Below, piece by piece: positions 15,315-16,052 of a DNA stretch of 64,000 nucleotides. The notes beneath the pieces are model-generated. The model did not search any database. It had not been told where the DNA came from and worked only from the letters and a program-made list of their open reading frames with translations. A program made the position numbers and the translations under genes. Each line of letters begins with the position of its first letter. Positions within the stretch are counted from its first letter, which is position 1. Location of the stretch: NCBI RefSeq assembly GCF_006345805.1, contig NC_043008.1, positions 65,906,001-65,970,000 of the forward strand, in the 5' to 3' direction. The stretch is from Octopus sinensis. Lineage: Eukaryota.

Positions 15315-15563
15315 AAAATGGTATATGACTATTTAATTTTTTCCCACTAGGCCGCTGGTGGCAAAAAAATTCTACAAAATTTTTTGCCACCCTATATTGA
15401 TTAATTATGAATTTTCTGGTTAATTCCGTAATGGAATCGGCGGCTTATATTTATTTGCTGCCGATAAATTTGGCGCGAGTGCGATGATTTGAAAATTTTA
15501 GGTCAGATATTGCCGAGGCAGGGACGGGAATGCCTCGTGAAAAATATCTGTTCCGACTTGGCT

Positions 15564-15670
15564 ATTTCTTACTGATGAATCTAAGGGCCTATGGTAGATT
15601 GGCTTGATTTAATTTAATCAGGTTAGTTTACCATTAAACAGTAGACGAAACGGTGCATCGTATAAGAAAT
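15564..15670 (+). ncRNA. Type I hammerhead ribozyme, copy 1
   Basis: Stem I ATTTCTTA/TAAGAAAT; CTGATGA (15572-15578); stem II TCTA/TAGA plus a 19-bp extension; GAAA (15647-15650); stem III CGG-TGCA-TCG; GUA triplet, predicted cut after 15662. Confidence 0.88.
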
Positions 15671-16052
15671 TACAGGGTAAATGTTTTTTAATTTTCTCCT
15701 GGTTTACGGAATTGATGTTATTTTGCGGTTAAAGCTTTTGGCTGTTATTTCTAGTGGGTGAATGGCCTATTATGGCCGTTCCTTGATTGTGATGTTGAAC
15801 TTAAAAATGGTATATGACTATTTAATTTTTTCCCACTAGGCCGCTGGTGGCAAAAAAATTCTACAAAATTTTTTGCCACCCTATATTGATTAATTATGAA
15901 TTTTCTGGTTAATTCCGTAATGGAATCGGCGGCTTATATTTATTTGCTGCCGATAAATTTGGCGCGAGTGCGATGATTTGAAAATTTTAGGTCAGATATT
16001 GCCGAGGCAGGGACGGGAATGCCTCGTGAAAAATATCTGTTCCGACTTGGCT

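Follow-up and report, generated by a model that had tools for sequence, protein, structure and literature searches.

Metazoan non-LTR retrozymes were defined by Cervera and de la Pena (2020, PMC7229834) with a unit of 150–450 bp, and in the passages drawn on here Penelope-like elements (PLEs) are put forward as strong candidates for moving them. Li, Clavereau and Pollet (2026, bioRxiv 10.64898/2026.07.22.740005) give units of 51–972 bp and argue from co-occurrence and terminal-repeat homology; the main text of this preprint is silent on tails and on molluscs. The class is thus already known, and the enzyme that moves animal retrozymes is, in the relevant parts of both sources, still inferred from co-occurrence and from similarity of terminal repeats. 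For PLEs themselves, the sections of Craig et al. (2021, PMC8557442) used here describe inverted copies, a tail that is often present at one end only and, for the Hydra clade, insertion into (TA)n. In vitro work on the Poseidon element PAc (Frangieh et al. 2024, PMC11167929) reports two adjacent internal start sites of reverse transcription that define the tail and, in the same results, no difference in start site between strands. Our literature search, with subscription journals and Repbase outside its scope, returned nothing on a cephalopod retrozyme, on the family described below or on counted one-of-each insertion ends.

Here we analyse a tandem array in the genome of Octopus sinensis (2.72 Gb, rich in microsatellites), which lies in a stretch of 64,000 nucleotides referred to as the window (NC_043008.1, positions 65,906,001 to 65,970,000). 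Taken together, our data make it highly probable that the array is a copy of a young non-coding hammerhead retrozyme, whose insertion into TA microsatellites likely depended on a Hydra-clade PLE enzyme. Its features are collected in Table 1. No ORF of at least 100 aa is found within the array (15313–16382), and no LTR-like layout was seen in the insertion anatomy of the loci that we read. A target site duplication is unreadable at the insertions, which have (TA)n on both flanks. The first-pass annotation gave the monomer as 487 nt, which is right for copy 2 but not for copy 1, and its single substitution in copy 2 (C>T) is indeed the only substitution, although two one-base deletions accompany it. 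Elsewhere the window contains a tRNA match at the Rfam gathering score (3222–3303, + strand, 82 nt on a 71-position model), 7.9 repeats of a 33-bp unit with 98% identity (43278–43538), a 388-bp tandem duplication, 94% identical, that includes a SINE-like repeat and GT tracts (17848–18658), and a pair of inverted arms of 194 nt, 89% complementary and spaced by 113 nt (26710–27210).

Table 1. The array, its ribozymes and its flanks in the window; unit positions (q) are numbered from 15315
Feature	Position	Strand	Remarks
Left (TA)n-rich microsatellite, insertion target	15125–15312	.	TA array called 15125–15314
Whole insertion	15313–16382	+	one arm, 2.19 tandem units; 5' end truncated, 3' end at site A
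Unit copy 1	15315–15803	+	489 nt, 36.6% G+C, without ORF of at least 100 aa
Unit copy 2	15804–16290	+	487 nt; one substitution and two one-base deletions relative to copy 1
Partial copy 3	16291–16382	+	stops at site A, abutting (TA)n
Right (TA)n, then (TATG)n microsatellite	16383–16493	.	repeat scan
Closing helix 15343–15350/15751–15758 and branched fold inside	15343–15758	+	followed by hairpin 15761–15780
Site A (q91–98)	15405–15412	+	fixed 3' end of arms; putative reverse-transcription start
Site B (q478–484)	15792–15798	+	other fixed 3' end of arms; the next unit's site A lies 104 nt downstream
Type I hammerhead, copy 1	15564–15670	+	cut predicted after 15662, GUA triplet
Stem I, copy 1	15564–15571/15663–15670	+	8 bp
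Core, copy 1	15572–15578	+	CUGAUGA
Stem II, copy 1	15579–15583/15642–15646	+	A.C at base
Insert in stem II	15584–15641	+	58 nt; internal loop and 19-bp hairpin
GAAA, copy 1	15647–15650	+	core
Stem III, copy 1	15651–15660	+	palindromic loop
Type I hammerhead, copy 2	16053–16157	+	cut predicted after 16149
Predicted cut-to-cut monomer, candidate circular RNA	15663–16149	+	487 nt

The array is a member of a young dispersed family (family 1). Searching the octopus's own genome gave 232 matches in 39 of the 1087 candidates scored, located on many chromosomes, with 92–100% identity among the 150 matches listed. Two sister families were also found: family 2, whose 474-nt unit aligns at 72% identity (205 matches in 40 of the 1381 candidates scored), and family 3, with a 488-nt unit, likewise 72% identical (125 matches from 40 of 2119 candidates scored). 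A single insertion, L094:1521-2842, mixes family 3 and family 2 units, which suggests template switching between retrozyme families.

We read 48 family-1 loci (the 39 above and nine more), which are best-scoring matches rather than a random sample. Two arms arranged head-to-head are found in 39 of them, and the other nine, the window's included, have one arm. The outer ends are 3' ends of the + strand set against (TA)n and are fixed, at site A or at site B, while the inner 5' ends are scattered. One arm ending at A is combined with one ending at B in 36 of the 39 two-armed loci, including three with a very short A arm that was identified by visual inspection of the flank; the exceptions are the irregular loci L038, L045 and L048. 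The same combination occurs in 14 of 17 two-armed loci of family 2 (among 20 loci) and in 11 of 11 of family 3 (among 20 loci, with eight single-armed and one chimeric set aside). Together with the PLE described below, this makes 74 loci with one end of each kind against at most two same-site cases (L103 and part of L045). As to the irregular loci, the arm at L038:5524 ends at unit position 41 beside a GT tract and other repeats, by deletion or a second insertion, and at L048:4020 the end of an arm lies at unit position 304 and follows a motif resembling those that precede sites A and B, possibly a cryptic third start site.

Arms are between a fraction of a unit and ∼17 units long; of 31 loci measured, 14 have more than one unit in both arms. 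Arms belonging to one locus have variants in common: they differ by 0.54%, versus 1.29% between loci (31 loci, 1109 pairs, P-value = 1e–9). Within four long arms variants recur with a period of 2, 2, 3 and 5 units, while L061 and L063 show no period. The largest family-1 locus (G000:C22:28190264-28200570, covered by L216, L207 and L217) has ∼21 units in two inverted arms, with period 5 in one of them. Features of PLE-type insertion are all present in the family, namely an inverted 5'-truncated arm, a tail at one end only and a (TA)n target.

A candidate partner is found next to one of the arrays. A 2.4-kb element with a single ORF adjoins a family-2 array in L069, and the translation of this ORF carries the RWK, DKT and CxCX5C motifs that the relevant part of PMC8557442 gives for the Hydra clade. 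Pfam and PDB sequence searches with the protein returned no informative match; among its neighbours in the atlas, GIY-YIG and RVT_1 families are assigned to part of the members. Judged by its sequence, the co-resident element has the full set of Hydra-clade features (length below 3 kb, RWK, DKT, a CxCX5C linker, a predicted C-terminal GIY-YIG and a (TA)n target). It is young as well (95–98% identity, 40 of 1292 candidates scored), and its copies in (TA)n have two ends, 67 nt apart. Of 20 loci, five are single-armed and two complex, and all 13 clean two-armed ones have one end of each kind.

At L069:1649 family-2 sequence runs into the PLE ORF at a 4-nt homology, a junction that is not present in other PLE copies; it could be due to a template switch, and a deletion between two neighbouring insertions fits too. 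At L070:1649-3205 the Hydra PLE has its own ORF-less tandem of ∼519 nt that precedes a full copy, with a short homology where its 3' end meets its 5' start, which looks like a nascent retrozyme-like derivative. The hammerheads of both Hydra families that we examined likewise have long inserts in stem II. Between the unit and the terminal repeat of the first of them (Hydra-A), however, nothing is shared beyond 10-nt words, and between the unit and the flanks of the second (Hydra-B) there is no homology, which leaves room for a different family as the true partner. The second Hydra family, which lies beside a family-3 array in L124, was considered as a parent and rejected, as a (TA)n tract separates the two and its other copies have no unit. 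With tblastn the Hydra protein gave weak matches on retrozyme loci in L068, L042 and L094 and nothing in 11 further stretches, and a protein search for further Hydra families recovered the same family alone (best 150 of 19839 candidates scored).

We regard it as highly likely that a PLE mobilises the retrozyme, and we lean slightly towards a circular RNA as its template. The arrays would be transcribed from the + strand and the transcript cut by the hammerheads into 487-nt monomers, perhaps as dimers via the palindromic stem III (dimeric hammerheads are treated in the relevant part of PMC4209133). A host ligase might then close monomers and some multimers to circles, by analogy with the retrozymes discussed in part of PMC7229834. 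The presumed PLE protein would nick both strands of a (TA)n tract, with priming at site A from one target end and at site B from the other, on the same source RNA, which is how we read the observed ends. The resulting cDNAs, spanning part of a unit to ∼17 units, would be joined head to head at short homologies. A bolder version, plausible but tentative, is that a dimer of the Hydra-type enzyme binds one circular RNA asymmetrically, primes the strands at A and B, rolls round monomeric or multimeric circles and writes the two arms together in a single event. In that case the one-of-each rule would hold for Penelope-type transposition in general, and the fold would suffice to recruit the enzyme without common sequence.

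The main rival to this scheme retains the element and the PLE enzyme and dispenses with the circle. The template would be a linear multimeric transcript, fold-back (self-priming) on either the first cDNA or an antisense template would produce the inverted arm, and long arrays would grow later by unequal exchange. Self-priming has been proposed for PLE inversions in the part of PMC3846280 bearing on them, and hammerhead mutants were still inserted in vitro according to the corresponding results of PMC11167929. Variants common to both arms fit fold-back copying too, 4 of 31 junctions form palindromes with at most 1 nt of deviation (P-value = 4e–5), and 27 of 31 family-1 and 12 of 14 family-2 loci are compatible with it. 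In the other 4 of 31 and 2 of 14 loci, however, neither arm contains the other, a fraction that for family 1 is no different from the 21% expected for independent arms (P-value = 0.18), and by our own reading fold-back is excluded at 7 of 12 PLE loci as well, with one complex locus set aside. We therefore consider this account possible, though rather unlikely.

Whichever template is used, it is close to certain that the element is a metazoan non-LTR retrozyme and not a viroid. Its ribozyme was missing from the helices listed by the first-pass annotation, although it occupies 15564–15670 in copy 1. It is also missed by Rfam, which reports no ribozyme in 15200–16500 even at E 10 and, window-wide at the gathering score, just the tRNA; the 58-nt insert in stem II is the likely reason, and the long insert appears to be a hammerhead form that escapes Rfam detection. 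All three families retain the core, and stems I, II and III each show compensatory changes between them. Four stem II and four stem III sequences across the families all pair, and the core is kept bar a U4C variant in family 3. This comparison was made by pattern tabulation, the MAFFT alignment having misplaced the core, and the L128 row was left out. A CCGA core (U4C) instead of CUGA is frequent in family 3 and in the two Hydra families (L112, L070, L136). At the base of stem II, 141 family-1 cores (39 loci) have A-U in 91 cases, A.C in 26, U.U in 23 and C.U in one, the A.C form being spread over 13 loci that include the window's copies. The active hammerhead fold is computed to lie 3.0 kcal/mol above the local minimum, in which the core is paired. 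Because of this and of the A.C at the base of stem II, cleavage of the window's copies may be weak. According to the assays in the preprint by Li et al. (bioRxiv 10.64898/2026.07.22.740005), as covered here, 8 of 9 Xenopus retrozymes did not cleave.

The first-pass annotation called the folded monomer viroid-like. This is apt for its shape, as the predicted circle is branched, 60% paired and of viroid size, but not for the nature of the element, a genomic retrotransposon with its ribozyme in one polarity. Hammerhead viroids and satellite RNAs are small branched RNAs with a hammerhead, so the likeness could mean that an endogenised RNA of this kind also replicates from RNA to RNA, a reading that we find very improbable. 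No hammerhead core was found on the – strand; hammerheads in both polarities and the lack of a DNA form, which mark hammerhead viroids, are not properties of the unit, which has type I topology and genomic DNA copies with retrotransposon ends. At least half of the unit's words occur in 19 public runs under four organism codes, of which nine are guessed to be DNA. Four probable RNA runs, each from a different study, have contigs that cover 25–28 of 30 array bins, contigs being blind to strand, level and circularity. In three probable RNA runs other repeats are covered while the unique stretch L110:9353-10000 is nearly uncovered, whereas the DNA run covers it. The unit shows no excess over the PLE in probable RNA runs relative to the DNA run, in contigs that are unable to rank levels. 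Probable RNA runs do carry variants unseen in the window's locus, as a replicating RNA might, but hundreds of genomic copies with retrotransposon ends explain these variants.

There is a real RNA-level structure in the unit. All eight helices drawn by the first-pass annotation are where it placed them and comprise 70 pairs, 64 Watson–Crick and six G-U; every non-Watson–Crick position is G-U on the + strand, with no other mismatch. Four of the six, however, sit in the single helix 15725–15745, and counting G-U in hand-picked helices is a circular argument for selection on the + strand. The cut-to-cut circle of the + strand folds to –145.4 kcal/mol, better than dinucleotide shuffles (z = –5.9, 0 of 100 as low), as had been predicted, but the proposed strand asymmetry fails, the – strand reaching z = –6.8. 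Raw energies do differ (–145 versus –108 kcal/mol) and so do those of the shuffles (–111 versus –73), because the unit has 59% G+T. In the sister families both comparisons favour the + strand (z = –6.4 versus –5.3 and –5.0 versus –2.6). The helices were taken to form one fold; all of them do pair, but 15504–15550, 15514–15537 and 15725–15745 are missing from the single-sequence minimum-energy fold. The weakest across the three families are 15514–15537 (84% of cells paired) and 15725–15745 (79%), while the closing helix is paired in 98.7% of cells and has two pairs with double changes. The C>T of copy 2, which turns ctagtggg into ttagtggg and had been offered as a sign of selection, is absent from the sites altered in at least 2 of 228 aligned pieces; being private, it is uninformative.

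Compensatory changes among homologues are seen across the three families. Our alignment comprised 28 units (that of the window, 4 of the 38 other family-1 units, 6 of 18 from family 2 and 17 of 18 from family 3). The 70 pairs are paired in 91% of cells, versus 35–48% in slid controls, and double-sided changes affect 9 of the 70 pairs and 34 cells, versus a shuffle mean of 9.1 (0 of 500 as high), counts that are inflated by kinship, since three related families amount to few independent events. We also tallied pair changes at the 79 pairs that are Watson–Crick in the window, calling a new pair type inherited when shared by at least three members of a sister family. Inherited types comprise 11 Watson–Crick, 15 G-U, 5 A-C and 7 other; rare ones comprise 2, 10, 17 and 14, respectively. 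The inherited excess of G-U over A-C (15 versus 5, P-value = 0.04; against 10 versus 17 among rare ones, Fisher exact test, P-value = 0.017) means that changes favour G-U on the + strand. The + polarity is thus supported by the ribozyme, the insertion ends and this G-U excess, and selection on a + strand RNA fold finds support in the conserved core, covariation and inherited G-U, though the arguments first offered for it fail. Selection for cleavage, for circle stability and for display of the two start sites probably maintains the fold.

The same observations bear on whether the unit is a DNA satellite or foldback element, with palindromes that function as DNA and with spread through recombination or circles of extrachromosomal DNA. 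Tandem arrays and the fact that both strands beat shuffles in folding would suit it, but the ribozyme core lies on one strand and is conserved across families that are ∼72% identical, fixed 3' ends are combined with random 5' ends, and the inherited changes show the G-U excess; this reading is largely refuted and highly improbable. Classical twin priming by a LINE enzyme, which produces inverted insertions with short junction overlaps resembling the two-armed loci, is just as improbable, given that there is no poly(A) end, that the outer ends on both sides are 3' ends of the + strand, fixed at two positions inside the unit, with arms overlapping in the template, and that the PLE itself shows the identical pattern.

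If the bolder version above is true, the arrays are a direct genomic record of animal retrozyme movement, written under a one-of-each rule so far unquantified. A signature that matches the Hydra PLE points to a candidate enzyme, a pair of start sites and a substrate of 487 nt, and since young copies keep this signature nearly strictly, mobilisation becomes testable in vitro.

How does the octopus element compare with described systems? With non-LTR retrozymes, as characterised in the passages drawn on here, it has in common tandem units that are non-coding and contain a single type I hammerhead, a G+C content below 50%, dispersal over the genome and a predicted circle that is strongly self-paired. 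The core is predicted to be blocked, as in some mussel retrozyme circles, and the mismatch at the stem II base recalls axolotl HHR_Amex2. The unit of 487–489 nt, however, exceeds the range given in 2020 and falls inside that of the 2026 preprint, stem II has the 58-nt insert, and inverted two-armed insertions with two fixed ends are not described for retrozymes in those passages. In Xenopus 24 of 57 retrozyme families are credited there with transposon homology, whereas here no homologous PLE terminal repeat is found. With Hydra-clade PLEs, according to the corresponding sections of Craig et al., the element has in common (TA)n targets, partial tandems, an inverted 5'-truncated copy, a one-end tail and a hammerhead in the repeat. 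It differs from them in having no ORF, in a tail of 104 nt versus 30–40 and in sharing no homologous sequence with either Hydra family that we examined. Finally, two start sites that define a tail, nicking and extension of both target strands and AT-rich targets are all reported for PAc in the results of Frangieh et al. considered here; in the octopus the insertion ends suggest the corresponding features. The strands of PAc behave alike, whereas the octopus loci end at different sites on the two sides, in 74 loci against at most two.
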